Below are positions 7,096-44,033 of a DNA stretch of 64,000 nt, in pieces. The notes beneath the pieces are model-generated. The model was given only the letters and a program-made list of their open reading frames with translations. It searched no databases and was not told the origin of the DNA. Source of the DNA: an uncultured Candidatus Saccharibacteria bacterium (GTDB lineage Bacteria; Patescibacteriota; Minisyncoccia; Phycocordibacterales; UBA2100); NCBI GenBank assembly GCA_964633425.1, contig CAZWFX010000004.1, positions 18,517-82,516 on the forward strand, written 5' to 3'. The position numbers and the translations under genes were made by a program. Position 1 is the first letter of the stretch. Each line of letters begins with the position of its first letter.

Positions 7096-8661
7096 CTAGA
7101 GCGTAAAGAGTTCCGGATGTGCGAGCTTGAATTCCTCTGCCGCCTTGAGGATAGATGCCATCGATTCGTCGGAGAGAACGCCGGTAGTCTTGATGTCGTT
7201 GAGTACGCTCGAGTACTGACCGTCGAGGAAATCGACGAACAATCGCTCAATCTCAACAACCTTGTTAACCGGGGCCGCATTCAACATGCCCTTGTTCGCG
7301 GCAAAGATCATTGCGACCTGGCGCTCGAATGCGATCGGATGGCCGTTTTTCTGCTTCAAGACTTCAACCATGCGCTGACCCGATGCGATTCGATCTGCAG
7401 TTGCTTTGTCGAGGTCGGACGCGAACTGCATGAACGCTTCGAGTTCGCGGAACTGTGCAAGTTCAAGCTTCAAGCCGCCTGCGACTTTCTTCATTGCCTT
7501 GGTCTGTGCATCACCTCCCACGCGCGAGACCGAGATACCCACGTCGATTGCCGGTCGGATACCCTTGTTGAACAGGTCTGCAATGAGGAACATCTGACCG
7601 TCGGTAATGGAGATCACGTTTGTCGGGATGTAGCCGGAGACGTCGCCTTCCTGCGTTTCGATGATCGGAAGCGCCGTAATAGAACCGCCGCCCTTTTCAT
7701 CGGAGAGGCGCGCAGCGCGCTCGAGCAATCGGGAGTGGAGGTAAAAGATGTCGCCCGGGTATGCTTCGCGTCCCGGCGGTCGTCGGAGCAAAAGAGAAAG
7801 CTCGCGGTACGCAACAGCCTGCTTGGAAAGATCGTCGTAGACGATCAGCACGTCCTTTCCCTTGTCCATGAAGTATTCACCGATCGCGACACCTGAGAAC
7901 GGCGACAGATACTGCAATGCCGCAGGAGCCGAGGCCGGCGCATCCACGATGATCGTGTATTCAAGAGCGCCCGCTTCGCGGAGCTGCTGCATGATACGTG
8001 CGGTCTTTGATTCCTTTTGACCGATCGCGACATAGATACAGATCGGGCGCTTTCCTTCCGGTTCGTTCTTTTGGTTGATGATGGCATCGATCGCAACGGT
8101 CGTCTTGCCGGTACCGCGGTCACCGATGATGAGTTCGCGCTGACCACGACCGATCGGAATAAGTGCATCGATAGCCTTGATACCGGTCTGGAGCGGAACC
8201 GACACGTGCTTTCGGTCGATAACGCCATATGCCTCACGCTCAACGGGCATCATGGTCACATCCTTGAACGGACCTTTGCCGTCGATCGGCTCGCCGAGCG
8301 CATTGACCACGCGACCGAGCAGCGATTCACCCGACGGAACAGCAAGCACCTTTCCCGTTGACTTGACCGTCATACCTTCGGAAACTCGCGACGTGTCGCC
8401 CAAGATGGTTGCGCGCACGCCGTCCTCTTCGAGGTTGAGAATCAGTCCGTAGAGTTCGGACTGTTCACCCACCGCGTCCTTGAGGTGCTTTCCCTTCTCT
8501 TCATCGAAGAGAATGATCTCCGACATCACAGACTTCGAAAGTCCGTCGATCGCGACGACGCCGTCGCCGACCGAAACCACACGGCCGACGTGTTCGCTGT
8601 GCGACTTCGGCGCGATGTGCTCGATCTCTTTGATGATCTTCTGTACCGTTGATTGATCCAT
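7096..8661 (-). CDS. atpA: F1 ATP synthase subunit alpha
   Basis: 521 aa. Walker A GDRGTGKT; typical F1-alpha sequence. Confidence 0.97.
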
Positions 8662-8678
8662 AGTAATTGTGTGCTGAC

Positions 8679-9068
8679 TTATGCGCGCGTGACGCCGTTG
8701 TAAATATCAAGTAATCCCTTCTTATACGAAGCGTCCACGAGCCTCTCGTTACCCTCGAGGCGCCAACCGCCGATTAATGTATCGTCGACTTGCGTCTTGA
8801 GGTCCTCGACATCGATGCCCATTTCACTCGTGTACGCCTTTACCTCCTTTTTTGCGTGTGCAAGATCGCTTTCGCGCGCGACGCTCAGCGTGTAATCACG
8901 CTTGCGGGATTCGCGCTCGGCGATACGTGCAAAAGCACTCCCTACCCGCGGCATAAGTGTGCCGCGGCCTTCCTTCTCCAGACGCGCGTGTATCGCATGC
9001 ACCGCCTCCTTTACACCCATGCCGTTGGACACGAGTTGCCAGAGCGCCTGTGCATAGATTTTCTCCAT
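8679..9068 (-). CDS. atpH: F1 ATP synthase subunit delta (OSCP), short form (129 aa)
   Basis: Lies between atpF and atpA. C-terminal [27 protein letters not shown] fits the delta C-terminal pattern. Confidence 0.75.
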
Positions 9069-9077
9069 ACGCGTCTG

Positions 9078-9524
9078 TTATGCCTCCTTGCGAAGGATCT
9101 TTTCTGCGGCCAAGACCGCAGCGCGGGTAATTTCTTTCTCGCTCTCCATGAGCGCCTGTCGCTTCGCCTCTTCGGCGCGCGCAGTCGCGTCCTTCATCAG
9201 CGCGTGCGCTTTGGCCTCTGCCTCGCGCACGATCTCCTGACCCCGCTCATCCGCTCGCGACCGTGCCGCCGCAACGAGCCCTTCGGCTTCGCGCGCAGCT
9301 GTGCCGACGATACCCTCACCCTGCTTTTTTGAATCCGCGAGCACGCGATCCGCCTCTTGTGCGGAACGAACGCCTTCGGCAACCATTTCCCGTCGTTTCG
9401 CGATCATGTTCATGACCGGCGTATACAAGAAATAGGTCAGGCCCGTGAGCAGCACGGTAAAATTCACCGCCTGAATGACCAGGAGGCGCCAATCCAAACC
9501 GAACGCTGTTACAAGACCTTCCAT
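9078..9524 (-). CDS. atpF: Fo ATP synthase subunit b
   Basis: 148 aa. One N-terminal TM helix followed by a long charged helix (AREAEGLVAAARSRADERGQEIVREAEAKAHALM). Confidence 0.8.
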   Translation of the reverse strand: MEGLVTAFGLDWRLLVIQAVNFTVLLTGLTYFLYTPVMNMIAKRREMVAEGVRSAQEADRVLADSKKQGEGIVGTAAREAEGLVAAARSRADERGQEIVREAEAKAHALMKDATARAEEAKRQALMESEKEITRAAVLAAEKILRKEA

Positions 9525-9535
9525 GCAGGGTGAGA

Positions 9536-9781
<246 letters not shown>

Positions 9782-9844
9782 CTACTAAATTTTGGCTCAC
9801 TTTATCACAGAGCCGCACGGACGCACGCACCTGCTGATACACAG

Positions 9845-10636
9845 CTAGTGCTCGCTCCCGTGCGGTTCGGCGATCGCCATTTTGACGAAAAACAGCGTCA
9901 GAAGCGCGAACACGGCTCCTTGCACGATACCGACAAACATCTCGAACGCCATAAGCGGCGCCGGCAAGAAGTACGGTACGAAAAAGGACACGACGGCGAT
10001 CAGCACCTCGCCCGCAAAAATGTTGCCGAACAATCGGAACGAGAACGATACAAATCGCGAGAGCTCGGAGACAAGCTCGATGAGACCGACCACAAAATTG
10101 ATCGGTGACGAGAAATTGATGAACTTCCCCGCATAGCGGAATATGCCGAGCGCAAAGATGCCGGCGAATTCGATCGCAAACATAACAATGAACGTAAGCG
10201 CGAGCGTTACGTTGAGATCGGTGTTCATGCTGCGCAAAAGCGGAGCGGTCTCACCGTTGTGAGTGATTGTGAACGAACCGACGCCCGGCATAAATTCGAG
10301 CAAATTTGCGAGCGCAATAAAGAGGAACAACGTGAGCAAAAGCGGAAAAATGCGACGAGCCCAGGTGGAATCCTCGAGCGTGGTTTCGATGAAATCGTAT
10401 ACGTAACCGAAGAGCAGCTCCACGAACGTTTGGAACTTACCGGGAATGAGCGAAAGCTTTGAGCGGACAACGATTGCAAATATAAAGAGGAGCACCATGA
10501 CGATCCAGCTCATGAGCAGCGTGTTGGTGAGCGGAATACCGAAAATTGTCCCGATCTGTTCGGCTGAAAGCGCTACGTGAATGCCGCTCGTGTGAGCGGC
10601 CTCCGCTGCGTGTTCGACTACGGCTGATTCCTGCAT
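9845..10636 (-). CDS. atpB: Fo ATP synthase subunit a
   Basis: 263 aa, polytopic. FSFRLFGNIFAGE contains the conserved Arg motif of subunit a. Confidence 0.9.
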   Translation of the reverse strand: MQESAVVEHAAEAAHTSGIHVALSAEQIGTIFGIPLTNTLLMSWIVMVLLFIFAIVVRSKLSLIPGKFQTFVELLFGYVYDFIETTLEDSTWARRIFPLLLTLFLFIALANLLEFMPGVGSFTITHNGETAPLLRSMNTDLNVTLALTFIVMFAIEFAGIFALGIFRYAGKFINFSSPINFVVGLIELVSELSRFVSFSFRLFGNIFAGEVLIAVVSFFVPYFLPAPLMAFEMFVGIVQGAVFALLTLFFVKMAIAEPHGSEH

Positions 10637-10809
10637 AACGCGCGTACTCTAACACGAATTTACGGCAATTTCATGTGGCCAGCTGTCAAAAAACGGCTTA
10701 AAACGAGTCGAATACGAGGCACGAAGAAAGCCCCGTCTCGAGCCGTACTGAACGTACGGCAAGAGTGGGGCTGCGCTTCGTAACGAAGTAGTCGGCCGTT
10801 TTCAGGTGT

Positions 10810-11439
10810 TTAGCTACTCTTTTTGGGAGGCAGAAGGACATTGTCGATAACAATGACCACTCCATTGGTTCCCTCGTACTGCGTGACCACGATCGCACTG
10901 TTCACCATAGGGATTTTTGTCGGGCCGTAGCTGAAGTTGAGCACGTCGCGCGACAGCGCCTCGATAGAGCCTGCTGTCATCTGATCCGGATCAACTGCCC
11001 GGCCGGATACAACGTGATACTGGATGAGGCGCTTCTTCTCTGCCGCACTCATGCCACTGATCGTCCCGGGAGGCAGCTGTGCGAATGCTCCGTTTGTCGG
11101 AACGAATATGGTGTATTTCGAGGTCGACTTGGGGCTGATCGTCGCCGCAACACCAGTGGAGCGGAAGTACCCGTTGAACGTCGAGCCCGTCGAGAGACCG
11201 CGGACGATGGTTGCGACGTCCTGATTTTTCTTAGCCGTGTCCTTTTTGACAGTCACGGTTCCCTTCGTGGTCGTGGTAACGGTAGGAGCCGACGTGGTAG
11301 CCGTGGCTTCCTCGGTGGTCGTGCTGCCCATTTGCGAGAGGCCGCCGAGCGGGCGGTTGGCGGCGAGCCACCACAACACGAGGGCGGCAACGACGATAAG
11401 TGATACAACACCTACCCAAATGCCCTTATTTTGATTCAT
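10810..11439 (-). CDS. Membrane-anchored fasciclin (FAS1) domain protein
   Basis: N-terminal TM helix and Thr-rich linker. TIFVPTNGAFAQLP and GVVIVIDNVLLP match FAS1 conserved blocks. Confidence 0.8.
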   Translation of the reverse strand: MNQNKGIWVGVVSLIVVAALVLWWLAANRPLGGLSQMGSTTTEEATATTSAPTVTTTTKGTVTVKKDTAKKNQDVATIVRGLSTGSTFNGYFRSTGVAATISPKSTSKYTIFVPTNGAFAQLPPGTISGMSAAEKKRLIQYHVVSGRAVDPDQMTAGSIEALSRDVLNFSYGPTKIPMVNSAIVVTQYEGTNGVVIVIDNVLLPPKKSS

Positions 11440-11507
11440 AATTTCGGAATTACATTAATGGTGATCGTAAAAAATCCGATCCTACATCGGACTGTCATGA
11501 AGACGCT

Positions 11508-12392
11508 TTAATTGTAGCGTTCTTTCATAAACGCCGCTATGAGACCCGCGGCGCGGGTCTCGCCGCCGTGAAAGCTATGCACAACATCCGGAATGACCAC
11601 AACTTCACCGGTGTAGATGTGTTCTATGAACCAATCGTGCAGCGCTGCCGCTGAGCGATCAGCGTATTCATCGTGCTCGGCAAGCACTACAAGGATCGGC
11701 ACACGGATTCCGCGAAGCGTGTTCGGTTTAGTCGACTCGCTCCAGTACGGAAAGATCTCTTCGTTCCCCCGTTTGGAATACAGACTTATAAATCGTTGCG
11801 CATCGATCATTGACGGCCACATGTGATCCGGCAGGAGGTTGTGTTTCTTTTTAGCCGCGACAAGCTTCTGCGCTGCGGCAAGCGCTTTATTGATGGCTGT
11901 GTCCCCCACTTCCTTTTTCATACCGGCATAGTCGCTGATCGGCGCGAGCAGAATGATGCCGTTCACACCGGCGCTTTTTCGTTTATGTGCCCAATACACG
12001 GATTTTTGGCAACCCGTCGAGTGGCCCGCAAGAAATATTTCTTTCGCCCCGTGTTTGCGTGCGAACTGCACAGCCCCGTCGATGTCATCCACGCAGTCCT
12101 CGAACACCTCGTGCACAGAACCCGCGGTGAATGTTGTGTAGCCTTTTTTGGTCTTCGGGGCGGCCTTGTACATCTTGCTGATAAGACCATGACCGCGGTT
12201 ATTAAATGAGAGCACTGCCGTTTCTTCGTTGGTGAGTACGGCTGCGAATTCACTGGCGACGGCGTTCAGCATGTTGCCGCCAAGACCATGCACGAGGATA
12301 ACGACGCGTTTCGCCTTTTTGGGGCCATACCAGACGCCGTTGAGCTTAACGAGTTTCGGAGTAAGAATCTGTGCGAGATGTACGGGTTGCAT
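11508..12392 (-). CDS. Alpha/beta hydrolase
   Basis: 294 aa. VILVHGLGGN oxyanion region and GHSTGCQ nucleophile elbow. Confidence 0.7.
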   Translation of the reverse strand: MQPVHLAQILTPKLVKLNGVWYGPKKAKRVVILVHGLGGNMLNAVASEFAAVLTNEETAVLSFNNRGHGLISKMYKAAPKTKKGYTTFTAGSVHEVFEDCVDDIDGAVQFARKHGAKEIFLAGHSTGCQKSVYWAHKRKSAGVNGIILLAPISDYAGMKKEVGDTAINKALAAAQKLVAAKKKHNLLPDHMWPSMIDAQRFISLYSKRGNEEIFPYWSESTKPNTLRGIRVPILVVLAEHDEYADRSAAALHDWFIEHIYTGEVVVIPDVVHSFHGGETRAAGLIAAFMKERYN

Positions 12393-20921: not shown

Positions 20922-21566
20922 ATGGCCAGTCGTATCGTGCAATTGAACGGAAGCTTTGCCGATCGTCATGCAGCAACTACGGCGATCACGGAAGGATTGT
21001 TTCATTTGCAAAGCGGCAGCAACTACGGCTGCTACACCAGGCGGCAGTGGTGGCCGAATATCGCCGACTGCGATGTGATCACGGTGCGCGGCAAGACGCG
21101 GGTGTTCGAACGAATGCCCGACGAGCCGCGCGACGAGTTCAGCACCGACGGCTACTGGTCGTCGGACTACGTGGTCGTGCTCGAAAAGCCCGACACGCAG
21201 CTGTTCCTGATACCGAATGCCGTACCCACGTATCCGGCAGAAGCAGCAATGGCCCGCGGATGCACCGTGATCATCGCGCTCATGATCGCGTTCTGGGCAC
21301 CGACGGTGGTGGCGCTCTTGTTTAAGCAGGGACCGTGGAGCGTTGTGTACGGGTGCGTAGTGCTTGGCGTAGTGATGCTGACATCGATGTACGAATACCG
21401 GATTCGAACTTTTTTCGCCGGTATCAAAGGCCGGTGGTACGTGTACAACGCGATCCGCGTCGGCAGAGGCACCCGCGAGCACTACAAGGAGCTCGTGGCG
21501 CATTTGTCCGAAGCGGACCACTACACGACCGCCTCTGTGAACAAACAAATTCTTCGATGGCTCTGA
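20922..21566 (+). CDS. Hypothetical membrane protein
   Basis: 214 aa with two central TM helices (CTVIIALMIAFWAPTVVALLF, VVYGCVVLGVVMLTSMY). The opposite-strand ORF 20805..21638 is Arg/His-rich and looks antisense. Confidence 0.5.
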   Translation: MASRIVQLNGSFADRHAATTAITEGLFHLQSGSNYGCYTRRQWWPNIADCDVITVRGKTRVFERMPDEPRDEFSTDGYWSSDYVVVLEKPDTQLFLIPNAVPTYPAEAAMARGCTVIIALMIAFWAPTVVALLFKQGPWSVVYGCVVLGVVMLTSMYEYRIRTFFAGIKGRWYVYNAIRVGRGTREHYKELVAHLSEADHYTTASVNKQILRWL

Positions 21567-21611
21567 GCTCCGCTCACCCATCCCCCAACAGCGCGGTTCC
21601 CCCGCGCTGTT
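21537..21611 (+). repeat. Direct repeat copy A (last 9 codons + stop of 20922..21566 plus terminator hairpin)
   Basis: 75 bp with 4 mismatches to 22254..22328. Contains the hairpin AACAGCGCG-gttcccc-CGCGCTGTT. Confidence 0.85.
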
Positions 21612-21631
21612 TGATTGATAAATCATGATGA

Positions 21632-22240: not shown

Positions 22241-22253
22241 GCGGGGCACCTCC

Positions 22254-22328
22254 GTGAATAAACAAATTCTACGATGGCTCTGAGCCCCGCTCACCCATCC
22301 CCCAACGGCGCGGTTCCCCCGCGCTGTT
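22254..22328 (+). repeat. Direct repeat copy B (orphan copy of the gene 3' end + terminator hairpin)
   Basis: Still encodes VNKQILRWL-stop, with two synonymous changes relative to copy A. Abuts the AT-rich cassette. Confidence 0.85.
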
Positions 22329-23025
22329 ACATTAAAAATTCCTCAATTTTATCAATGAGGTATCCGAGGTGCCGCACGCGTGAGTTTAATGACATGTATA
22401 CAGCAGCGTAATCAAGTGTTTCGATAGTCCGCAATGCATTTTTTGCGCGCTTTGTGTATTCGTCACCTGCGATTTGATATATATCGTGCAGTGTAGCAGC
22501 GGCTAATGGTATTGATTCCACGTCGTGGGTTGTGACATCAATCCCAGTGGCGGCGCGAATTGTATGTGGCGTTAGTGAAGAATGAATCTTCGCAAAATGG
22601 CTATGCTCCGCAATGAACCACGCTTCCACTTCCATTACAGATATGAGGATTTCGGGCGAAACTGTCTTTGTTGGCACATATTTGCGAGATGCCAGTTTCA
22701 CTTTGTTTAGATCTCTTAAGGCGTGCGGATGTAGGTCGCGTAAACCGAGAATCATTGCAAACTCAGCTTTTACGAGAGATTCGTGCTGATCAATTATCTC
22801 GGACTGCACTCGACTATCGCCGCCGCAGTCTGAGATCAAGGCAAAGTATTTTTGGGTTGAAATTTTGGACTTAGCAGTTATGACAAACGTCGATGCACCG
22901 CTCTTCTTACCAATAAATTTCTTTGTCTCAATTGCTATATTATGCTGTCCAGCAATTTCCAGAAGTAACTTCTCAATAAAGAGTTGCTCAGTTTGTCCCT
23001 CAACAAAAAAAGCGAGCTTTTTCAT
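22327..23025 (-). CDS. DUF4276/Toprim-like protein (RloB/AriB-like candidate nuclease)
   Basis: ORF trimmed to the ATG at 23025 (ATGA overlap with the ATPase stop). Starts MKKLAFFVEGQTEQLFIEKLL; later VMEVEAWF. AT-rich codons. Confidence 0.6.
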   Translation of the reverse strand: MKKLAFFVEGQTEQLFIEKLLLEIAGQHNIAIETKKFIGKKSGASTFVITAKSKISTQKYFALISDCGGDSRVQSEIIDQHESLVKAEFAMILGLRDLHPHALRDLNKVKLASRKYVPTKTVSPEILISVMEVEAWFIAEHSHFAKIHSSLTPHTIRAATGIDVTTHDVESIPLAAATLHDIYQIAGDEYTKRAKNALRTIETLDYAAVYMSLNSRVRHLGYLIDKIEEFLM

Positions 23026-24146
23026 TTCAGTCCAGTCGCAAGAAAATTTTTCGAGAAGAAATCGAAGTTGTTTAGCCCCGTATATGTGAACTCTTGAAAA
23101 ATCTTCTTGGAATTCGACATATTGTATATTTTTGATCCATTTTTTATTCGCTGTATAACATTCCAATATTTCAGATCTACATTGTTCATCACAAAGCGGT
23201 CATTTGTAGACATAATTAGTTGAACTTTGCCAGCTTCTGCCTCTTCAACAAGCAACTTGATTAAACTGGATGATCGATCGAAATCGAGCCCTTCACCTAT
23301 GTCATCAATTAAAATACCGCTTCTTGCTCCAACAACATTAAAGTATTCGATTTGTATAAGTAGTGCGAGCGCACGGAACATTCCCTGCGACATATTGTTT
23401 TGGTCAACAGGTGTACCAATTCCTTTTTCTTTAACATAAAGTCCAAGTAACTTTATTGATGTTTTCAAACTAACTGGAACGGCTACGCCAACGTCCGTCA
23501 AGTGGTATCCCAGCAGTTTCATTTTTGATATGACAGATGATTTGAATGCTTCACCTTTAATCTTCTCGCCCTTTCTGAAAGTCGAAATGACATGCTCGTT
23601 CGCTTCTACGATTGAATCTATGTCGTCTTCGTTTTGAAAAGCTAGCATTGAGTCCTTGCCAAGTGATGTGCCAAAACGAAATAGACTAAGTGACTCTGCC
23701 CACGCGTACAGCTCATTTAGACGCGGATGCTGCACCGCGTCCCGCTTTGTATTTAGCACAATCTCGTTTGTCTCTATCTGAAAATCTATAAGGCCACCTA
23801 CTTTGTCAGCAAATATTTTCCCTCTGCCTGTTTTTGACCTTGAAAAGACAACTTTATTATTGAATTTTAGCTCTTCCTTAGTAACACACGCATTTTCGAT
23901 TCTTAAAACATACTTATACACGTTCGATGCATGCAAAAAGGTCGCTTTATAGTTGGTCGAAGCATACGTAGCTTTCGACTTACCGGACATTAGTCCCGCT
24001 AGGCCTGAGATAACGTTAATTGTTCGAGTTTTCCCATTTGCATTTTTTCCAACAATTAAATTGACATCGCCAAACTCAGTGGCAGGGATTACCCACTCAG
24101 CTTTAGTGCCGGGAAATTGGCTATATTCAAACTCAATCAGCTTCAT
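23022..24146 (-). CDS. ABC-type (AAA_21/AAA_15-like) ATPase
   Basis: 374 aa. Walker A GKNANGKT, signature-like MSQGMF, Walker B GILIDDIGEGLD. Confidence 0.8.
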   Translation of the reverse strand: MKLIEFEYSQFPGTKAEWVIPATEFGDVNLIVGKNANGKTRTINVISGLAGLMSGKSKATYASTNYKATFLHASNVYKYVLRIENACVTKEELKFNNKVVFSRSKTGRGKIFADKVGGLIDFQIETNEIVLNTKRDAVQHPRLNELYAWAESLSLFRFGTSLGKDSMLAFQNEDDIDSIVEANEHVISTFRKGEKIKGEAFKSSVISKMKLLGYHLTDVGVAVPVSLKTSIKLLGLYVKEKGIGTPVDQNNMSQGMFRALALLIQIEYFNVVGARSGILIDDIGEGLDFDRSSSLIKLLVEEAEAGKVQLIMSTNDRFVMNNVDLKYWNVIQRIKNGSKIYNMSNSKKIFQEFTYTGLNNFDFFSKNFLATGLK

Positions 24147-24150
24147 AGAA

Positions 24151-24498
24151 TCAGCGCAATAATTTATCTAGTCTTATGATCCATTTATCAAATTTAGCAG
24201 TTATATAGCCTAATGGCACGGAGAAAAAAGCCGTCAAAATTGCTGTGGCAGTAAATCCACCTAGAGCGGCGGCAGGGTTGCTTAGGGGGATTTCTGGAAA
24301 CCCTGTGCCAAATTTCTGAACAAGGGCTACAACGACCCAAAAAAGGAGTGCGCCCCAAATAAAGCTCCAAGCGGCATACTCAATGTCGTTTAAATATTGG
24401 GCTTGTCTCCCTGCGAAGTGGCGATAGCTCCAAATTAAAGTCGCACCCGGAACGACAAATAATAGATATGCTATGCCAGAAATCGATAAAGACTCCAT
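24151..24498 (-). CDS. Small integral membrane protein (3-4 TM), first gene of the AT-rich cassette
   Basis: 115-aa hydrophobic ORF ending 4 nt before the ATPase start. Confidence 0.55.
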   Translation of the reverse strand: MESLSISGIAYLLFVVPGATLIWSYRHFAGRQAQYLNDIEYAAWSFIWGALLFWVVVALVQKFGTGFPEIPLSNPAAALGGFTATAILTAFFSVPLGYITAKFDKWIIRLDKLLR

Positions 24499-24583: not shown

Positions 24584-24811
24584 ATGCCCAAACAAAAACT
24601 GATGGAGGAGCTGGTTAATAGGTACGAGGATTCGGCCATTGCCGGCAAGAGCGCCAAAGACGCAGGCGTGAGCTACAGCCCCGCCAGCAAATGCTTCACC
24701 CTTAAATTCGATGTAGACGAGCACGAGCTGATCGCCAAGTTTCTCGCCGATCACCCGCAAGGCGGCGACGAGCTCGAGCAAAACATCAAAAACTGGATCA
24801 AGAACGGATAA
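24584..24811 (+). CDS. Hypothetical small protein
   Basis: ORF 24473..24811 trimmed to the ATG at 24584 (MPKQKLMEEL...) to avoid overlap with the divergent gene. Confidence 0.4.
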   Translation: MPKQKLMEELVNRYEDSAIAGKSAKDAGVSYSPASKCFTLKFDVDEHELIAKFLADHPQGGDELEQNIKNWIKNG

Positions 24812-24825
24812 ATAGCGATAGGTAT

Positions 24826-25037
24826 AAAAGCGTTGCCCCCGACGCACCGCGATGCGTCGGGGGCTGGTAGTCGCAAGGAGCGATCTCCTGCGAGACAAAA
24901 AGCTTCCCGGCCGCGGGAGGCGTGGCGCAGGCCTAAGGAACGGGCAGTACGTGGCTCCAAAAACCACGCGCGAGTTGGCCGCCCGTCGGGCGCGACCCCT
25001 GAGCTTCGTCCGCCACCACTCTACCCCGCCGCATCCA
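24826..25037 (-). ncRNA. Candidate ~200-nt GC-rich noncoding transcript (unclassified)
   Basis: Bounded upstream by palindrome/promoter copy 1. Bounded downstream by a 12-bp hairpin GCCCCCGACGCA / TGCGTCGGGGGC (24835..24864) plus CTTTTAT on the minus strand. Several internal stems. No credible ORF. Confidence 0.3.
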
Positions 25038-25047
25038 AAAAATACAT

Positions 25048-25075
25048 ATTCTCACATTCTTGAGAATATGAGAAT
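25048..25075 (-). promoter_or_regulatory. 28-bp palindrome copy 1 (putative operator overlapping a promoter)
   Basis: ATTCTCACATTCT-TG-AGAATATGAGAAT, 13-nt arms with 1 mismatch. Identical to copy 3. Confidence 0.6.
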
Positions 25076-25087
25076 GTTTTGTGCCAA

Positions 25088-25121
25088 CAAAAACAAAACG
25101 GCCGCTCATTGCGAGCGGCCG
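25088..25121 (-). terminator. Rho-independent terminator of 25143..25808
   Basis: Stem CGGCCGCTC / GAGCGGCCG with loop ATTGC, followed on the minus strand by TTTTGTTTTTG. Confidence 0.8.
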
Positions 25122-25142
25122 GTCTGCCTATACGGCGAAAGA

Positions 25143-25808
25143 TCAGGTGTGCGCATACACTCCGAAGTAGCGCTTTGAGCACAGCATCACGATCACGATC
25201 TGCAGCACGAAGAACGACCCGGGAATGATGGCCTCGGATGACGACCAGTTCGGGACTGCAAGAACCCCAAACCCGCCGCCAACGAGGAACAGCATCCACG
25301 GCCAGAACGGTTCACGGTGCGGCTCATTCCACAGCGGGATCACGATTGCGACACCGCCGAGAGCAACCGAGACCACCGAGAGATAGATCGCGTAGTCGGG
25401 ATCGCTCTTGATCCCCCACGCCGCAACGGCAAGGGCAACGATGCCGATGCATGTCGAGTCGAGCTTGTTCCAGCCGGTAAACACATCCGACCAGTGCGCC
25501 TCTGTGCCGTTGAGCCGAGCGATCTTGTAGTTCTTGCGGAATGCGAGCACCACCACAACAACGCCGCCGATCACATACGGGATCATCTGCCAGGCGATGT
25601 TCTCGGCAGATCGCGTGTTGATGGCGTTTGCCACCATTGCCGCAAGGATCGCCATGTCGGACAAGACCCAACTGCCGATCCCCGAGATTGACGGGCGCGT
25701 GTCGTTTTTGCCGCTCACGCGCCACGCCGATACCCAGTACGGGATAAAGGCGATAGTCGAGAACACGACCGCAAGGGCCGCGTATACCTGTAGGCTATTC
25801 AGTTGCAT
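25143..25808 (-). CDS. Polytopic integral membrane protein (about 7 TM)
   Basis: 221-aa hydrophobic ORF; last gene of the palindrome-controlled operon. Confidence 0.65.
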   Translation of the reverse strand: MQLNSLQVYAALAVVFSTIAFIPYWVSAWRVSGKNDTRPSISGIGSWVLSDMAILAAMVANAINTRSAENIAWQMIPYVIGGVVVVVLAFRKNYKIARLNGTEAHWSDVFTGWNKLDSTCIGIVALAVAAWGIKSDPDYAIYLSVVSVALGGVAIVIPLWNEPHREPFWPWMLFLVGGGFGVLAVPNWSSSEAIIPGSFFVLQIVIVMLCSKRYFGVYAHT

Positions 25809-25891
25809 TGCCGAGGCCTCCGTTTACCGAATGGTATGGGAATTTGACTGTTGTTATTATACTACGATTTGTGCCATGCGTCAATTAGCCC

Positions 25892-25925
25892 ACAAAACAA
25901 AACGGCCGCTCATTGCGAGCAGCCG
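25892..25925 (-). terminator. Terminator-like hairpin after 25946..27085 (near-copy of 25088..25121)
   Basis: Same stem-loop with one mismatch, followed by TTTTGTTTTG on the minus strand. Confidence 0.7.
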
Positions 25926-25945
25926 GTCTGCCTAAAGGCGAAAGA

Positions 25946-27085
25946 TCAGTTCTTGTGGAGCGAGGTGTTCAGCTCGACAGGTGCCGACGTCGGGCGCATG
26001 AGCACCTGCCCCGTTTCGCTGTCGCGGATGAACGTCATCCCCGAGTTATTCGAGAGCGAGGCGGCTTTTCGCACGGCGCCGTCGGGGCGCAGGATGCGCA
26101 TGCCCGCGGTGATGTAGAGACCGGCTTCGATGCGACAGTTGTCGCCGAGCGAAATCCCGGTGCCGCCGTTGGCGCCGATCAGGCAATTGCGACCAATTGT
26201 GATCACCTCTTTGCCGCCGCCGGATAGCGTGCCCATGATCGACGCACCGCCGCCGATGGCTGTCCCGCTGCCGACCCACACACCCTGCGAGATCCTGCCC
26301 TCGATCATGTTCGGGCCTTCGGCGCCGGCGTTGTAGTTGCAGAGTCCTTCGTGCATCACGGTCACGCCTTCGCCCAGATACGCGCCGAGCCGCACGCGAC
26401 TCGCATCTGCTATCCGCACACCCGATGGCACCACATAGTCGAGCATCCGCGGAATCTTGTCGCGCGAGTGCACCGAAAACGGACGCCCCATCGTGAGCGC
26501 ATCCATGCGTCGCTCATGCAGATCCGCTTCGCTGATCGGTCCCTCGTTGGTCCATACATTGTTGGGCAGGACCGCAAAGAGATTGTCGAGGTTGATGCCG
26601 TGCGGCCGCACCTTGCGGTGACTGAGCAAATGCAGGCGCAGGTACGCGTCGGGCACGCTCGACGGTCCTTTGTCGCTCTCCTCTTCGGGAATCGCGCACG
26701 CGACAACGCGCATACGCGTGTTGATCGAGTTTCTGAAAGCGGTATTCCGCAACAGCTTTGCCGCCCTGCGAAGCGCATCCACGTTTCCGTGGTGTTTGCC
26801 GTCGCCTTCTGTCCACTCGAAATATTCGAGCATCTCGCGCACGATATCGAGATTGAGCACACCCATCGCCTGGTGATCGCCGGTGTAGTTGAGCACCTTG
26901 GCAAACACGGCGGCGGTGCCGTAGTTCTCGCGATGATTCGGCATCGGGTAGAGCGCATCAAGATACGCTCCGCTACTGTCGACGTTCACGAACCCGATCC
27001 CGAATGCACGCGGGCGTTTGTAGTCGGGCCGCTCCTCGAATTCGGTTACGAACTGTCTGAATGCGATTTGAGTCTGTATCCGCAC
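25946..27085 (-). CDS. Hexapeptide-repeat acyltransferase, tetrahydrodipicolinate N-succinyltransferase (DapD, actinobacterial type)-like
   Basis: 379 aa. [25 protein letters not shown] plus a left-handed beta-helix region ([16 protein letters not shown]...[20 protein letters not shown]). Confidence 0.65.
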
Positions 27086-27154
27086 TTCGTTCTCCTCCTG
27101 TTTGACCGTAGTGCACCGTACCCGATTGAACTGAATTGTCGAGCGGAGCGTTGC

Positions 27155-27907
27155 TTAGCTCTCGCGAACCTTGTAGCCATCAAACCGTTCTGTGTGGACC
27201 TGCGAAGTGGGTACCCCGAGCGTGTGCAGCGCGTCGCGCATTGCTCCCACAAATGAATCGGTACCGACAATATAGAAATGACTATCTACGACATTCGGAG
27301 CGGATGTGCGGATCAAGTCGGCGGTGATTCGACCGCGCAGGATGCCCGACACACCTTCGCGCGTGAGTGTGGGAATAAACGTGTAGCCGGATTGTTCGTG
27401 CGCCACAGATTCAAACTCGCTGTAGAACGGAATACTTGGCCGCGACCGATCTGAATGAATATGCGTAACGGCAATCGGCGCGTTTGCAAGCCTTTGCTCG
27501 CGCAGAATGCTGCGAAACGGCGTGATGCCGATACCGCCTGATAGCCACACCTGTGGAGCCGCCGTTCTGGACCACAATGCACCGGCAGGATCGCGCACCA
27601 TGATCGGGTCCCCCGCCGCAAGCGCATATGCGGTGTGTTTAAAATTTGAATTCCGCACGCGCATCGCGATTACGAGATCGCTCTCGCTGGGTGCACTCGC
27701 GAGCGTAAATTCCTTGAGGTGCCCCGCCTGAGCACCGGGAATCGAGATCATTACATTTTGCCCCGGTGTAAACGCAAAACCGATCGGTCGCTCGATCGTG
27801 AGCGCAAGCGTGCTTTCGGCCACCATCGCGCGCGATACAACGCGGGTGCGATGAAAGGTGGTCGGCATATCGCCGAATACAAACGCGAGTTCCGGGGGCA
27901 ATCCCAT
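27155..27907 (-). CDS. Ferredoxin-NADP reductase-like FAD/NAD(P)-binding oxidoreductase
   Basis: 250 aa. FTPGQNVMISIPG, KEFTLASAP (R/K-x-Y/F-S/T-like FAD motif), LSGGIGITPFRSIL (NAD(P)-binding GGxGxxP). Confidence 0.75.
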   Translation of the reverse strand: MGLPPELAFVFGDMPTTFHRTRVVSRAMVAESTLALTIERPIGFAFTPGQNVMISIPGAQAGHLKEFTLASAPSESDLVIAMRVRNSNFKHTAYALAAGDPIMVRDPAGALWSRTAAPQVWLSGGIGITPFRSILREQRLANAPIAVTHIHSDRSRPSIPFYSEFESVAHEQSGYTFIPTLTREGVSGILRGRITADLIRTSAPNVVDSHFYIVGTDSFVGAMRDALHTLGVPTSQVHTERFDGYKVRES

Positions 27908-38953: not shown

Positions 38954-39028
38954 GGCCCTATCGTCTATCGGCTAGGACACGCCCCTCTCACGGGCGAAAG
39001 CGGGGTTCGATTCCCCGTAGGGTCACCA
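38954..39028 (+). tRNA. tRNA-Glu (anticodon CUC), CCA encoded
   Basis: Manual cloverleaf: acceptor GGCCCTA/TAGGGTC, D arm GTCT..GGAC, anticodon arm CGCCC-CTCTCAC-GGGCG, T arm CGGGG-TTCGATT-CCCCG, discriminator A, then CCA. Confidence 0.85.
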
Positions 39029-40706
39029 TCAGGTTTTTATCGGGTACAAATCCCGAAGATAGTTCGAATACTGGGGACAATTTAGGTGTTCCACTAACTA
39101 TTTCTGGATAGGTAGGCATCTTGTCGAATACCAAACCAAATAGATCTCGTAAAGAGCGCGGATCATCAGGGTTTAGCAACAATTCGGCCGGGTGTTCCAT
39201 TACATATCGAGCGTCTTTGATGAATGCTTTTATGTCATGTCTCGAGATCTGTATTTTGAGTCGGATTTTTTGCGCCTCTTTTATCTTTCGGTCGCTCTCC
39301 TCAATTTCTCTTTCAAGTTTCTCTCTAACCACCGCACTTTTTGTGGAGATAAGTAGCCCCAGTTTTGCATCCTGCTCGGCTTCGAGGTCCGCTATATTTT
39401 GGTGAATATCGCCCGACGCTTTCACAATTTCTTTTTCACGTTGTCGGTATTTGTTCATAAAAACCAACTCGAGTGCATTGAGAATATCGGGCTGGAACTT
39501 CAAACTCGAGACATATCTAGTTACTGCTTTTTCAAAGTCTGCTTTTGGTACTCTGAATCCTTTATGATCTCGCGCACAATGATATCCGGGAAACTTCTTC
39601 CCAGACTTGCCTCGTGATGCACTACCCAAAAAGGGTTTTGAGCAATAAGGACAGAGCAGGAACTTGAATGGATACAAAGGGTTGTTCCTTACTCTTACCT
39701 CACCAGTCTTTGAGGAGCGTTTTGCCAACTCAAGACTTCCGTCAGAAGTTTGTTTCAAAATCAATTTCCCGCGATTCGCTCTGTTCCAAAGATCAATACT
39801 AACCAGTCCGTCATACTGCGCTTTTATGGGCTTGAAGTGGGTCCACAATTCACACATAACTCCCGCATAAATTGGATTTTCAATGTATCTCTGGAATTGC
39901 TTTACTGTAAGCGGTTTGCCGCCTCGTTTTGCGATAATCTGCGTGTGTTCTTTGTTCCATCGATTTCGGATTGGTGATCGAAAACCCATAGCATTTACCT
40001 GCGCAACACACTCTTCATCAGTTAGACCACGCGCACGTAGATCAAACATCGCCTGATAAAATAGTGCTCGATCTGGATCTGGAACCTGAATGGTTTTTTT
40101 CTTTCCCTCGACAAATACTTTCTCGTTTTTGTAACCATCCGAAGGAGCGCGTGTACGATAGCCTTGTTGTGCAAGTCGAATCTCTTGTCCTATCATTCGA
40201 TGGAGAATCGTCGTTACTTCTTGCTTTGATGTGGTAGCCAAAACATTTTCAGTGATTTCACTTGGGAAAAACCTGCTCCAGTCATATTCAAAACCTAGAT
40301 CTTCAAGAGTATTTATTGATGGCTGTATAACACCGAGGGTATCAATCATCACTACTCCGTATTTCAGAAGTTCCTTTTTCATCCGATCATACTCACCAGT
40401 ACCAGCACGAGTGAATCTATCTATCGACTTGAATACATAAAAGTTTACGAGCCCAGGATTTTCTTTTATGAACGAAAGTACTTCTTCAAAATCATCACGA
40501 TTAGTTTTTCGTCCAGAAATGGCTCTACCCCATACTTTTCCATGCGGATCATCTTTCGTCTGTGGAACAATAGTCCATCCTCTATCAGATGCGAATCTGC
40601 GTAGACTTTCTTCCTGTCGTTCCAAACTCTCTCCCTCTGATGATTGTTTGAGGGAACTAACTCGACATTGAACTACGCATTTTTTATTTTGTGATGATAG
40701 GTTCAT
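38988..40706 (-). CDS. Large serine recombinase (integrase)
   Basis: 572 aa. Catalytic region CVVQCRVSSLKQSSEGESLERQ, recombinase domain, zinc ribbon CPYCSKPF...YHCARDH, coiled coil. The last ~13 codons are antisense to tRNA-Glu. Confidence 0.85.
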   Translation of the reverse strand: MNLSSQNKKCVVQCRVSSLKQSSEGESLERQEESLRRFASDRGWTIVPQTKDDPHGKVWGRAISGRKTNRDDFEEVLSFIKENPGLVNFYVFKSIDRFTRAGTGEYDRMKKELLKYGVVMIDTLGVIQPSINTLEDLGFEYDWSRFFPSEITENVLATTSKQEVTTILHRMIGQEIRLAQQGYRTRAPSDGYKNEKVFVEGKKKTIQVPDPDRALFYQAMFDLRARGLTDEECVAQVNAMGFRSPIRNRWNKEHTQIIAKRGGKPLTVKQFQRYIENPIYAGVMCELWTHFKPIKAQYDGLVSIDLWNRANRGKLILKQTSDGSLELAKRSSKTGEVRVRNNPLYPFKFLLCPYCSKPFLGSASRGKSGKKFPGYHCARDHKGFRVPKADFEKAVTRYVSSLKFQPDILNALELVFMNKYRQREKEIVKASGDIHQNIADLEAEQDAKLGLLISTKSAVVREKLEREIEESDRKIKEAQKIRLKIQISRHDIKAFIKDARYVMEHPAELLLNPDDPRSLRDLFGLVFDKMPTYPEIVSGTPKLSPVFELSSGFVPDKNLMVTLRGIEPRFRP

Positions 40707-40923
40707 ATGCTTGATCGTCTTTTACAGTATGCGCTTTACGATTTATTTTTTCCAGCCACATATCAAAGTATTTATCTGCAATTCCATCAAGTGCAATAAG
40801 CATCCGGCGTAATTGTTCGTCGGTGTATTTATTTGCTGATGGCCCGAGTGCTTTTTTGAACTCCTCGAACGATGTGGCTGTTTGTTGTATTTCCGGCTCC
40901 ATTGTGGAGCGGATCCAGTACAA
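40684..40923 (-). CDS. Small hypothetical protein upstream of the integrase
   Basis: 79-aa ORF overlapping the integrase start by 23 nt. Could start at the internal MEPEIQQ. Confidence 0.35.
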   Translation of the reverse strand: MYWIRSTMEPEIQQTATSFEEFKKALGPSANKYTDEQLRRMLIALDGIADKYFDMWLEKINRKAHTVKDDQAYEPIITK

Positions 40924-41305
40924 CTAAAAAGGACCCGCAAAGTCCTTCCGAGAAACATATCGGAAGAAATCGCGAGTCCTTTTTCAAGGAGACTCTGGGG
41001 GCGGCGATAACGTTCAAAACCCCATTTATTTAGTTGTGCATAAATTGTATCAAACTTTTTTCTTTTGCAACAATGGCAATTTCCACAATTTTTCGCTATC
41101 ATTGAAGGACAACCGAATATCGGCCCCTTGAGGGCGGGACCTAACCCCGAAAGAGAAATCTATCGGATATGGTCTGAAAGTCGATCAAGCATAGAAAACC
41201 CGTCATGGGGTTGCTTGATCGCCGTATGGGGAAACCTGTACGAGAGGGTTCGCCCTCTACCCGTGGCGGGTTTTCTGTTGCCCGCCATAGGTTTTATTAG
41301 CAAGG

Positions 41306-41755
41306 TTGCTAGCGATCAAGCCAACCATGTTCAAACAAACATACAAACACGATGTTACTTTGCCCGGACGCGGGCTTTACTGGGTATTAGGTGCCATAGT
41401 CGCAGTTCTGGGTTTACTAGCCCTCACAGGCGCGTATTTTGCGAACACGGCCCAAGACTACGATGGGTATACCAAGCCGAAAGCGCAAGAAACGGCAATT
41501 ACCCCAGAAAAGATGCAGAACGGGGTTAGTGCGATGGCAGATTTTATGGTGAAAGATGGGAATGTTGTTGGCCTACGAATGTGGGCGCGATCCCTCGGTG
41601 TTTCTAGTCCGGAGTTCTCAAGTGCCGCAACACTTCGAGAGGAGATCCGTCGTGCCTCAAATGACTTTGCGATCTATCGAGACAAAAACGAGTTATTGAA
41701 ATTGATGCAGTTACTGGGTAATAACGATGCAATTCTCAACGAGGTCGTGAGGTAA
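41306..41755 (+). CDS. Hypothetical membrane-anchored protein
   Basis: 149 aa with one TM helix (GLYWVLGAIVAVLGLLALTGAYF). Confidence 0.45.
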   Translation: MLAIKPTMFKQTYKHDVTLPGRGLYWVLGAIVAVLGLLALTGAYFANTAQDYDGYTKPKAQETAITPEKMQNGVSAMADFMVKDGNVVGLRMWARSLGVSSPEFSSAATLREEIRRASNDFAIYRDKNELLKLMQLLGNNDAILNEVVR

Positions 41756-41756
41756 C

Positions 41757-44033
41757 CTAGAGTTTTTTGAGTTCAGTAAGCACTTCTTCAGAGTTTCCAT
41801 TGTGAACCAAGAAGAAGCGCTGATTTCCTTTACCAAGTTTTTCCCATTCTGTTGCTATCTCAACTTTGTAGGCAGTATCTTCGTTGCTGATGCGATCTTC
41901 GCCTTTCCATTCGAGAGCGACGATTGTTCCTTTTTTAGTTACAGCGACAAAGTCAGGATAAAACTTTCCTTTTTTCCAACCTTGAATGAAGAACGGATCT
42001 ACTTTCTCTCGATTGCGAACCCAGAACTCAATGTTATCTAGCGCACCGAGATCTATGCGTTCAACAAATACTCTTTCCTCTCCGTTGATTCCGTCGATAC
42101 GTTCATAGAGATTTTTATTGAAAACTTTTGGTACCGGAGATTTGAGCGCAATCGTTGAAGGAAACTCCTCAAACAAACCAACAGTAATTTTCTTCTTTGA
42201 AATGAGATCTGCAAATACTTTCTTTGTGTGCTTTTCAAGCACTTCGCTGATAGCAACCGAAAGACGGTCCGCGAGAAGATAGCGATTTACTGATAGTTCA
42301 GGTAGGGATCGTTTATGCTTCTTGATTTGATTGTTTATGGCCTTCTCTATGAAGGCGTTTTTATCCTCCGGAGTAACCATTGGGAAGCGTAGTTTCTTAT
42401 CTAGCCACGTTACCAGTTCATCCTGTGAGTGTTCTCCGTCCAGATATTGATATGGTAGTGAGAGTTGCTTGCCTTGTAGCCACTCATTCTCTTCAGTGAT
42501 ATCGATTGTGGCTTGGCCGTCGAGATCATAGTGTATTTTGAAATCGAAATCAGCATCTTGCTTTGCTAGTTCAAAATCATCAGCCAAAAGGTCCTCAAAT
42601 GATAGTTTGTTTTTACCGATTGCCATCATTGGGACCTGCAACTTCTTCTTGATTGCTTTTTTTGCTTCGAGGGGATCAGAGTACGTTTCTTCTTCAGTTA
42701 CACCGACAAAATCGCTGCGGCTGTATCCGTTATCTTCGAGTCCCTTGATCACCTTTGATGCTGCCTCGTTGAAGTTTGCTGCGGATGCAAACACATAACT
42801 TCGATTGAGTGCCTCGTCTGCTTTTTTCTTTGCGTTAGGCATACGGATCACACGGCCGATGATCTGCTCGACTGCAACTTTTGCGCCGAGATTCGCGACC
42901 GATATGAGGACGTAAGCATAGGAACAGTCCCAACCTTCCGCAAGGGCGTTTACGGTGAGGATGTATCGCACATCGCATTTCTTATCGAACAAATCAATTC
43001 CTTCGAGTTCGTCGACTTCTGATGTTTTGATCTTGATTTGTTCTTCCGGGATCTTCTTGTCGAGCAACATCTGCTTCAACGCTTCGACGGTAACCGTCGC
43101 TTTGGTTTTGCTCTTTGGTTGTGCTTGGAGAAGTGCAATAGGGCGGATCTTTTCTCCTTTGAGTTTTTCTGCACGCTTCTCCAATTCGTTGCGCTTCATG
43201 ATTCCGTCGGAAACAACTTGCTCCCATTGTGTGCGACTCTCAAGAACAATCGGGATTTTTACCATCTCCTCGATCTTTAGTTCTGATGCACTTGTGTGGA
43301 CGAGCACGTTGCTGCCATCTCGGGGAGTAGCGGTAAACTCGATGATAAATGACGGCTTGAGATCAGACAGGAACGAAATAGAAAGATCTGTCTGTGTGTG
43401 GTGGCCCTCGTCGATTACGATGAGAGGATTGTTTTTTCTAATCACGTTTGCGAGTGAGTTGATTACTTCACCCGCAGAGTCTTTTTCCAAAGCAGATACA
43501 TCTTTCAAGTTCTGGAAGTGGTCCATCAAGGCACCGTTTTCCTTGTAGACTTTGTACTTGTTTTGGATCTTGGCTTCCTTTCGGAAAGCATCGAGGCTCG
43601 CAACGATAATGCAGAGATTGTTTCGAACGTCCTCCGGCGTGATAGCCAGTGCCTCCTCGTTTGAAAATACTTTGAACTTCGTATCGAATGAGTCATTCAA
43701 GACTTCAAAATGTAAATCCTTTGGATCACGAAGTTTCTTGAGAGTTTGTGTTTTTATTGAGTCCGAAGGAACGAACCACATGACAATTCCTGTATCCATC
43801 TTGTTCTGAAGGATAGTCGACATGATTCTCTCAACAGATTTACATGCGACCAGGGTTTTACCTGCACCTGTAGGCATACGAAGGCACACAAAAGGCACGT
43901 CGTTGAACCACTGGTGATTGTAGTTTTTCTCGGTGATCTCGTTGAAAGCATGTCGTGCTTTCATTTTCTTGAGTAGTCCCAAGAACTGGTCGAGAGTATC
44001 TATCGCATTTTGTTGGTAGGTTTTGAACTTCAT
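41757..44033 (-). CDS. res: Type III restriction enzyme Res subunit (SF2 helicase + PD-ExK nuclease)
   Basis: 758 aa. Motif I MPTGAGKT, motif II VIDEGHH, motif III FTATP, motif VI QIIGRVIRM. C-terminal YPDF...ALEWKGE fits PD-(D/E)xK. Confidence 0.85.
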   Translation of the reverse strand: MKFKTYQQNAIDTLDQFLGLLKKMKARHAFNEITEKNYNHQWFNDVPFVCLRMPTGAGKTLVACKSVERIMSTILQNKMDTGIVMWFVPSDSIKTQTLKKLRDPKDLHFEVLNDSFDTKFKVFSNEEALAITPEDVRNNLCIIVASLDAFRKEAKIQNKYKVYKENGALMDHFQNLKDVSALEKDSAGEVINSLANVIRKNNPLIVIDEGHHTQTDLSISFLSDLKPSFIIEFTATPRDGSNVLVHTSASELKIEEMVKIPIVLESRTQWEQVVSDGIMKRNELEKRAEKLKGEKIRPIALLQAQPKSKTKATVTVEALKQMLLDKKIPEEQIKIKTSEVDELEGIDLFDKKCDVRYILTVNALAEGWDCSYAYVLISVANLGAKVAVEQIIGRVIRMPNAKKKADEALNRSYVFASAANFNEAASKVIKGLEDNGYSRSDFVGVTEEETYSDPLEAKKAIKKKLQVPMMAIGKNKLSFEDLLADDFELAKQDADFDFKIHYDLDGQATIDITEENEWLQGKQLSLPYQYLDGEHSQDELVTWLDKKLRFPMVTPEDKNAFIEKAINNQIKKHKRSLPELSVNRYLLADRLSVAISEVLEKHTKKVFADLISKKKITVGLFEEFPSTIALKSPVPKVFNKNLYERIDGINGEERVFVERIDLGALDNIEFWVRNREKVDPFFIQGWKKGKFYPDFVAVTKKGTIVALEWKGEDRISNEDTAYKVEIATEWEKLGKGNQRFFLVHNGNSEEVLTELKKL

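Follow-up and report, generated by a model that had tools for sequence, protein, structure and literature searches.

RyhB, PrrF, FsrA and IsaR1, all of them regulated by Fur, are known repressor-controlled small RNAs. DapZ and MicL of enterobacteria are small RNAs that derive from 3' UTRs and have promoters of their own, and in the type I toxin-antitoxin pair txpA/RatA a convergent antisense RNA overlaps the 3' end of the neighboring gene. To our knowledge, RNA-based regulation is almost entirely unexplored in Saccharibacteria and in the other ultra-small bacteria of the candidate phyla radiation, whose gene regulation is poorly mapped. Here, we analyze a short segment from an uncultured Candidatus Saccharibacteria bacterium, within a window of 64,000 nucleotides that is the whole stretch of DNA under study. 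A sequence-only reading of the window had described the segment as GC-rich, free of credible open reading frames and headed by an orphan copy of a palindromic operator, and had proposed that it is either a small RNA regulated as part of the same regulon or what remains of a lost gene's leader. Its GC content is indeed high (67% vs ~55% for the genome). Our results lead us to favor, if only modestly, the model that the segment encodes a new, narrowly distributed, structured small RNA that would be repressor-controlled and part of an ArsR-like regulon.

The RNA and its operator appear to be new, being covered by neither Rfam nor the searchable literature, and in kind the unit resembles the known repressor-controlled small RNAs. 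Like RyhB, PrrF, FsrA and IsaR1 it would be short and non-coding, with a promoter overlapped by a palindromic operator that belongs to a repressor of the metal or stress type, and that repressor would likewise control protein genes and itself within a small regulon; an intrinsic terminator is a further shared trait. Unlike them, it has no sequence or Rfam relation to any of the four, its candidate regulator is ArsR/SmtB-like rather than Fur, and the candidate RNA exceeds typical base-pairing small RNAs in length and degree of structure. We know of no Hfq-type system in the candidate phyla radiation, to which the reduced-genome host belongs. The comparison with DapZ and MicL holds for two related loci, L043 (GCA_040959275.1) and L069 (JACCDV011115327.1), where the unit starts right past the stop codon of a gene for a flavin reductase resembling ferredoxin-NADP reductase (FNR-like) and would share its terminator. 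It fails in the window, where two genes and their terminators part the unit from the FNR-like gene and the promoter is intergenic rather than inside an upstream coding sequence. 6S RNA (RF00013 and related families) is of similar size and has a similar rod-like shape, with a closing stem, a large internal loop and an apical stem-loop; however, the segment does not match these families even at E<=10, occurs in few related genomes instead of universally and has a promoter that would be repressor-controlled. As in txpA/RatA, a non-coding unit converges on a small protein gene with a hairpin shared between them, but the 75-aa product here is an acidic, soluble protein rather than a small hydrophobic toxin, and relatives do not always have the two genes together.

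A proposed operator-promoter module and its regulon

The palindrome and the genes behind it are arranged in the window as follows.

25077..25044, minus strand: operator copy 1, a 34-bp near-perfect palindrome (ACATTCTCATATTCTCAAGAATGTGAGAATATGT) that overlaps the proposed promoter of the segment
27973..27940 and 27907..27155, minus strand: operator copy 2 and the FNR-like flavin reductase gene
51674..51641 and 51636..51331, minus strand: operator copy 3 and the gene for an ArsR/SmtB-like winged-helix regulator, whose ATG lies 6 nt past GAATAT

The 26-nt core of the palindrome occurs three times in the window, in one orientation (25045-25070, 27941-27966 and 51642-51667), with none expected by chance, and a looser search of the window gave no further copies. 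Copy 1 sits, as the sequence-only reading had it, between the terminator of a 221-aa membrane-protein gene and the segment; the succession of terminator, palindrome and transcript that this reading had likened to the layout at the regulator gene (51331..51636) is the same at both places. In copy 1 we propose a promoter with the -35 element TTCTCA (25074..25069), a 17-bp spacer and TG-n-GAATAT, with the -10 at 25051..25046, which would place the promoter wholly within the palindrome. GAATAT agrees with three of six consensus positions, and a consensus scan did not list this promoter.

The regulator gene carries the operator at its own start codon in four lineages, and in these (window copy 3, L049, L052 and L063) the ATG follows GAATAT after exactly 6 nt, with a spacer sequence that itself varies from one to the next. 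The invariant gap suggests a leaderless mRNA that starts at the A of the ATG, and this fixes the -10. The arrangement fits a leaderless, self-repressed promoter for the ArsR-like gene. The regulator itself has 101 aa and is encoded 26 kb from the segment behind an identical operator. Its assignment to the ArsR/SmtB-like proteins is weak but consistent, with 36.6 bits against the NCBIfam model HTH_metalloreg (cut-off 55), weak Pfam matches to HTH_24, HTH_20 and MarR, and E=7e-4 against the ArsR structure 6j0e in the PDB. We infer that this protein binds the palindrome and represses transcription from it.

Further copies of the operator precede other genes in L071 and L072 and an FNR-like flavin reductase gene in L073, and orphan palindromes lie between convergent genes in L072 and L044. 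Near the FNR-like gene of L043 and L069, the segment is the only operator-bearing unit that we found. We also considered the palindrome as a dif- or lox-like recombination site with 10-bp arms and a 6-bp spacer, and set this reading aside because of the fixed spacing to the regulator's start codon and the many different genes found downstream. The palindrome appears to be a conserved operator-promoter module of this Saccharibacteria clade; literature searches for its sequence gave nothing relevant.

Boundaries, conservation and structure of the segment

The segment is bounded by the features listed here.

25808..25143, minus strand: 221-aa membrane-protein gene, adjoining its terminator and then palindrome copy 1
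25090..25130, minus strand: intrinsic terminator of the 221-aa gene, with its stem at 25121..25099 followed by a T-run
24824..25041, minus strand: proposed transcript of ~210 nt, with a start predicted near 25039 (+/-3), 7 nt past the -10
24871..24893, minus strand: hairpin UCGCAGGAG-AUCG-CUCCUUGCGA, at the position of the terminator hairpin of L043 and L069 and free of a U-run in the window
24824..24864, minus strand: terminal 12-bp GC hairpin GCCCCCGACGCA/TGCGTCGGGGGC (24864..24853 with 24846..24835), then AACGCUUUUAU
24584..24811, plus strand: convergent 75-aa gene, very highly conserved, with its stop codon 23 nt from the terminal hairpin

The 221-aa gene has a GGAGG Shine-Dalgarno sequence before 25808, and its terminator is one of two copies that are 98% identical, the other lying at 25894..25934 (repeat family D9). 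The start of the segment is predicted from the leaderless spacing at the regulator genes and its end from the hairpin and the U-run at 24830..24824. The sequence-only reading had called this end a strong terminator. The 12-bp hairpin (24864..24835) and the U-run that follows it are present, the latter on the minus strand only, and the stem is strong; the U-run is less so, with four U that start 5 nt past the stem, and this short and offset run is why the consensus scan did not list the terminator. In L043 a 13-bp stem is followed directly by UUUU. The segment probably ends at an intrinsic terminator, whose U-run is sub-canonical in the window. Neither a tRNA nor a tmRNA was found at the segment. 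The product of the convergent gene has a confident AlphaFold model (pLDDT 84), with no family match for the protein and no fold match for the model in the PDB.

Homologues were sought with the 75-aa and FNR-like proteins as anchors and in one metagenome scan with the palindrome. Four versions of the segment were found, those of the window, L001 (CAZELA010000001.1, a metagenome-assembled Candidatus Saccharibacteria), L043 and L069, and the L001 version recurs unchanged in ten further contigs. They fall into three diverged lineages (window/L001, L043 and L069), and in every one the palindrome is followed by the structured core and a terminator; the conservation in relatives that had been named as a check is therefore seen, and the operator-promoter in front is the same each time. 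L043 and L069 share the succession of FNR-like stop codon, palindrome, a core of ~125 nt and then a hairpin with U, for a segment of ~155 nt, compared with ~210 nt in this genome.

A nearby dapD-like gene served to place the window in Candidatus Saccharibacteria, and the window and L001 are ~91% identical across 27907..24584. Their segments are ~96% identical outside the terminal stem, and the terminal hairpin has undergone about five compensatory double changes despite this identity elsewhere, so that the stem appears to be under selection. Between the window and L043 or L069 the segment is 65-70% identical, and the window version has two 9-nt insertions and the extra terminal hairpin. The L043 and L069 segments share 76.6% nucleotide identity over 158 nt with one gap, vs 72.9% DNA and 65.7% protein identity for the neighboring FNR-like gene. 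By these figures the segment appears to be conserved at least as well as the adjacent protein-coding gene, and no alignment of these two loci is possible in the intergenic DNA upstream of the FNR-like gene.

A covariance model (R1) built from the four sequences and run over 25 Saccharibacteria loci and the window scored 107 bits for the window, 104 for L001, 125 for L043 and 122 for L069, and detected no homologues in this set beyond these four. Viral contigs scanned with an RNA-specific pattern and with the palindrome yielded nothing relevant, the short contig P0004 contained no RNA, and four contigs anchored on the FNR-like protein (L071-L075) had operators and no RNA. Among relatives with the same neighboring genes, L044, L046 and L048 lack the RNA, and L045 and L047 carry only its first 30-60 nt. 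The segment is therefore dispensable and narrowly distributed.

The structure shared by the homologues can be described by two features.

24899..25045, minus strand: conserved structured core, described by the covariance model, with a closing helix, a weakly supported helix and the P3/P4 arm
24939..24987, minus strand: P3/P4 arm, in which the 8-bp P3 is formed by ACGGGCGG/CUGCCCGU (24987..24980 with 24946..24939)

The closing helix pairs 25041..25031 with 24911..24903 and 25028..25024 with 24918..24914. Within P3 lie an asymmetric internal loop and the P4 hairpin CGUGG/CCACG (24968..24964 with 24954..24950), which is capped by the loop UUUUUGGAG at 24963..24955. Both L043 and L069 retain the arm, in which compensatory changes have turned G-C into A-U and U-A into C-G. 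RNAalifold predicted 40 pairs, 12 of which are changed on both sides yet still paired. Over the 147-column core (A6), 93.9% of cells are standard pairs vs 34-53% in slid controls, with eight pairs changing on both sides. The covariation score of the core is 0.389, compared with at most 0.157 in controls, and none of 500 shuffles reached the observed value; this test draws on four distinct sequences from three independent lineages, has low power and does not model kinship. The consensus structure was derived partly from the sequences on which it was scored, and for this reason we rescored only the three helices that the sequence-only reading had drawn from the window alone. These pairings (ACGGGCGG/CUGCCCGU, CGUGG/CCACG and UCGCAGGAG/CUCCUUGCGA) are all present, and 90.7% of their cells are kept, compared with 34-47% for slid controls, and five pairs have changed on both sides; in the hairpin at 24871..24893, three pairs have changed on both sides between lineages. 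The covariation that had been suggested as a check is thus seen across the four sequences, and the base pairs appear to have been maintained by compensatory substitutions.

Support differs among the helices, being robust for P3 and P4, moderate for the 5'/3' closing helix and weak for P2. Minimum-energy folds of single sequences disagree in the 5' domain, and a G to A substitution in L001 breaks one pair of the closing helix. The minus-strand fold of the window has an energy of -104.8 kcal/mol (z = -2.0, compared with z = -1.4 for the plus strand), and z scores against shuffles are modest throughout, at -3.1 in L043 and -1.2 in L069. The strand is indicated by the pairs themselves: 93.9% of cells pair in the minus-strand RNA, including 32 G-U cells, but only 73.5% in its complement. 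This asymmetry, together with the placement of U-runs after hairpins on the minus strand only, points to a minus-strand RNA. Two further structural candidates were discarded. A pseudoknot between the P4 loop (GGAG/GGAA) and UUCC just 3' of P3 is sterically ruled out by overlap with P3, and the alternative closing helix in the minimum-energy fold of L069 is not kept in L043 or the window.

A scan of Rfam 15 at the gathering score gave no match overlapping 24826..25044. At E<=10 the only matches in the region were to the upstream terminator and to the palindrome, which resembles a microRNA hairpin by chance, and the homologous segments of L043 and L069 returned nothing at E<=5. These scans agree with the inability of the sequence-only reading to place the segment among SRP, 6S, RNase P, tmRNA or riboswitches. 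A duplexfold target scan against translation start regions was uninformative.

Alternative readings of the segment

The segment could instead act in cis, either as a structured 3' UTR or terminator module of the FNR-like mRNA or as a convergent antisense unit that interferes with the 75-aa gene or insulates it. The palindrome of L043 and L069 starts 6-20 nt past the FNR-like stop codon with no terminator between them, and an FNR-like transcript that read through would have the segment as its 3' UTR. In the window lineage, however, a dapD-like gene and the membrane-protein gene, both with terminators of their own, stand between the palindrome and the FNR-like gene, and the segment is still conserved. 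Interference or insulation has a basis in the orientation of the palindrome promoter, which faces the 3' end of the 75-aa gene in five lineages (window/L001, L043, L045, L047 and L069), with no minus-strand terminator between the two in L045 and L047; in addition, the 75-aa gene has no U-run of its own past the hairpin that it shares with the segment. Yet interference would need neither a conserved P3/P4 arm nor compensatory changes, the hairpins and their U should halt most transcription short of the 75-aa gene, and in L069 a 179-aa gene stands between the segment and the 75-aa gene. On balance we consider a cis-acting role unlikely.

A second possibility is that the segment is a non-functional leftover, consisting of a duplicated promoter-operator module and ~40 nt of an old 5' leader lodged beside terminators, with its apparent structure due to GC-rich sequence and terminator hairpins. 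The first 30-40 transcribed bases (GCGGCGGGGTAG...) do occur behind other palindromes: the motif GCGGCGGGGTAG(R)G forms the 5' leader of a real 120-aa gene in L048, short forms are present in L045 and L047, and L071 shares a TGCGGAA... variant. These occurrences make a leader-derived origin plausible for the 5' end of the segment. The orphan palindromes of L072 and L044 and the absence of the RNA from several relatives would also suit a leftover. Beyond the 5' motif, however, the core is 65-77% identical between lineages in which the FNR-like proteins are 59-66% identical and other intergenic DNA cannot be aligned, and its helices have been maintained through two-sided changes. Nor does any protein of the related loci match the segment. 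Every ORF of 40 aa or more in the window and in 30-odd related loci was compared with the three segments by tblastn, which returned only the segments' own ORFs and their orthologues; with no translated similarity to a real protein in this set, we rejected a pseudogene or degraded coding sequence, the outcome that the sequence-only reading had named as telling against a small RNA. We regard a leftover as distinctly improbable.

The possibility of a micro-protein arises from a frame that the sequence-only reading had missed. That reading took the first ATG to give M-R-R-G-stop, which is a frame error, since the TAG in question is out of frame and the ATG opens a longer frame.

24933..25034, minus strand: 33-codon ORF (MRRGRVVADEAQGSRPTGGQLARGFWSHVLPVP) with its ATG at 25034..25032 and stop at 24935..24933, forming the tail of ORF 24933..25109

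In both L043 and L069 the frame corresponding to the window's ORF contains an ORF of 27 codons, whose start and stop coincide between the two loci; a 3-nt indel preserves the window frame, and the peptides (33 aa in the window, 27 aa in the relatives) share the pattern AR..W.HV..VP. The start and stop of the window ORF nevertheless differ from those in L043 and L069, and it has no terminal AUG. A Shine-Dalgarno sequence is absent in the window, and in L043 and L069 a GGAG runs directly into the ATG. The 33-codon ORF has one synonymous and three non-synonymous changes between the window and L001. Between L043 and L069 the changed codons are 3-6 synonymous vs 15-18 non-synonymous in all six frames, with equal similarity in every frame, and the "synonymous" changes in one arm of the hairpin have amino-acid-changing counterparts in the other, a pattern that an RNA helix would produce. 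The missing Shine-Dalgarno sequence, the unconserved start and stop and the frame-independent substitutions make coding unlikely. The segment appears to be under no protein-coding constraint, the 33-codon ORF is probably not translated, and a micro-protein is in our view very improbable. Finally, a riboswitch-like or attenuator leader is scarcely credible: a structured domain followed by a terminator, with the 179-aa gene of L069 starting ~25 nt past that terminator on the same strand, would be consistent with one, but in the window, L001 and L043 the segment is not followed by a same-strand gene, the protein of 179 aa matches no family and was not found elsewhere, and we detected neither a conserved anti-terminator pairing nor an Rfam riboswitch match.

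A candidate regulatory RNA in Saccharibacteria

Of the two proposals made from the sequence alone, the small RNA of the same regulon is the one we favor, on the strength of conservation in three lineages, compensated helices, the G-U strand signal and the lack of coding constraint; it is bounded by the number of independent lineages, which is only three, and by a 5' end that may be leader-derived. In our model, the segment encodes a structured non-coding RNA as a gene of its own, and transcription of the minus strand would begin at a promoter that lies wholly inside the 34-bp palindromic operator. The ArsR/SmtB-like repressor, which presumably represses its own gene through the identical operator, would cover the -35 and -10 until a signal releases it. 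The 5' and 3' parts of the resulting RNA are predicted to pair, closing a domain with the conserved arm of 8-bp and 5-bp hairpins, and transcription would stop at the downstream hairpin or hairpins and U-run. The product is most likely a regulatory small RNA of a small regulon whose other members would be the repressor and the FNR-like flavin reductase. The RNA could partner with an mRNA or with a protein, and one candidate is the convergent, ultra-conserved 75-aa gene.

A bolder version of this model holds that the segment represents a new class of structured regulatory RNA in Saccharibacteria, that it is the main, and in some genomes the only nearby, target of the ArsR-like repressor other than the repressor itself, and that it acts by binding a protein or small molecule, possibly together with the 75-aa protein, instead of by simple antisense pairing. 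We put this forward tentatively, as quite unlikely in its entirety.

Literature searches on small RNAs or ArsR in Saccharibacteria gave nothing relevant. The immediate impact of our findings is modest, because the family is narrow and its role only putative. The locus nevertheless offers a defined operator together with what appears to be a leaderless, self-regulated ArsR-like repressor, a small regulon with an FNR-like reductase and a candidate structured RNA as one of its outputs. If confirmed, the repressor and its RNA would be among the first regulator/small-RNA pairs described in this phylum.

The conserved 75-aa protein and the adjoining defence hotspot

The gene that converges on the segment encoding the candidate small RNA (24584..24811, plus strand) specifies a 75-aa protein that is 91-95% identical at the amino-acid level across lineages in which the ferredoxin-NADP-reductase-like (FNR-like) proteins are only 59-66% identical. 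Judged from these sequences, its conservation is unusually high. The protein falls into only 14 clusters among 5.8 billion proteins and has no match in Pfam, NCBIfam, PADLOC or PDB. An AlphaFold model (pLDDT 84) predicts a helix, three strands and two helices, and a fold search with this model returned no match.

Next to this gene the DNA is variable and low in GC (39-47%) and forms a defence hotspot, at 22327..24498 in the window and 8604..11901 in the related locus L001. On the hotspot side, homology between the two genomes extends precisely to the 75-aa gene's start codon and no further. In the window the hotspot holds an AbiL/HEC-01-like pair (an AAA_21 ATPase and a DUF4276 protein); the equivalent site in L001 and ten related contigs carries IetA/IetS (an AAA ATPase and an S8 peptidase). 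At the far edge of the window's island lies a 202-aa membrane-protein gene bracketed by direct repeats:

21532..21624 and 22249..22341, two 93-nt copies, 89% identical

The repeat takes in a gene's 3' end, which encodes …SVNKQILRWL*, together with that gene's terminator, and is present as a single copy in L001.

Candidate insertions elsewhere in the window

A 221-aa membrane-protein gene is flanked on either side by copies of one terminator and has its own near-consensus promoter:

25090..25130 and 25894..25934, terminator copies, 41 nt, 98% identical
25884..25856, promoter, TTGACG-17-TATAAT, 11/12

This gene looks like an inserted cassette whose flanking terminator was duplicated on insertion. 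Both it and the dapD-like gene (25946..27085, minus strand) are missing at the corresponding position in the related loci L043 and L069. The dapD-like gene has two matches in Saccharibacteria, at 96% and 54%; its other nearest relatives in the genome collection belong to Porticoccaceae and Cellvibrionales gammaproteobacteria (44-47% identity), and it may have been acquired horizontally.

A 9-kb block of low GC (41-46%; 39000..48000), immediately preceded by a tRNA-Glu gene (38954..39028), may likewise be an integrated element. It contains a LOOT RNA, and a relative of a repeat covering two tRNA-Ala genes lies at its edge:

41138..41258, plus strand, LOOT RNA (RF03000), 71.6 bits
60749..60915 and 62882..63048, 167-nt direct repeat, 96% identical, covering the tRNA-Ala genes
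47904..48033, 130-nt inverted relative of that repeat

Apparent dispersal of the palindrome and its putative promoter

In L044, L043 and L069 the stop codon of the FNR-like gene leads directly into the palindrome, the putative operator, and in L048 and L073 the element is flanked by genes on both sides. Orphan palindromes lie between convergent genes in L072 (about 4374..4400) and L044 (about 1940..1970), with neither a gene nor a homologue of the candidate small RNA behind them. Because the element is palindromic, its plus strand in the window (25064..25069) carries a mirror-image TG-n-GAATAT, which makes it possible that the palindrome fires divergently; from its sequence, it could send antisense transcription into the upstream gene.

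The 30-40 nt 3' of the palindrome are conserved between unrelated copies, as a G-rich GCGGCGGGGTAG(R)GG motif and a TGCGGAA… variant, at these loci:

L045, 4225..4312
L047, contig end
L048, about 1140..1222
L071, about 753..870

The putative promoter module seems to have spread through these genomes by copying, as a single piece at least 70 nt long.
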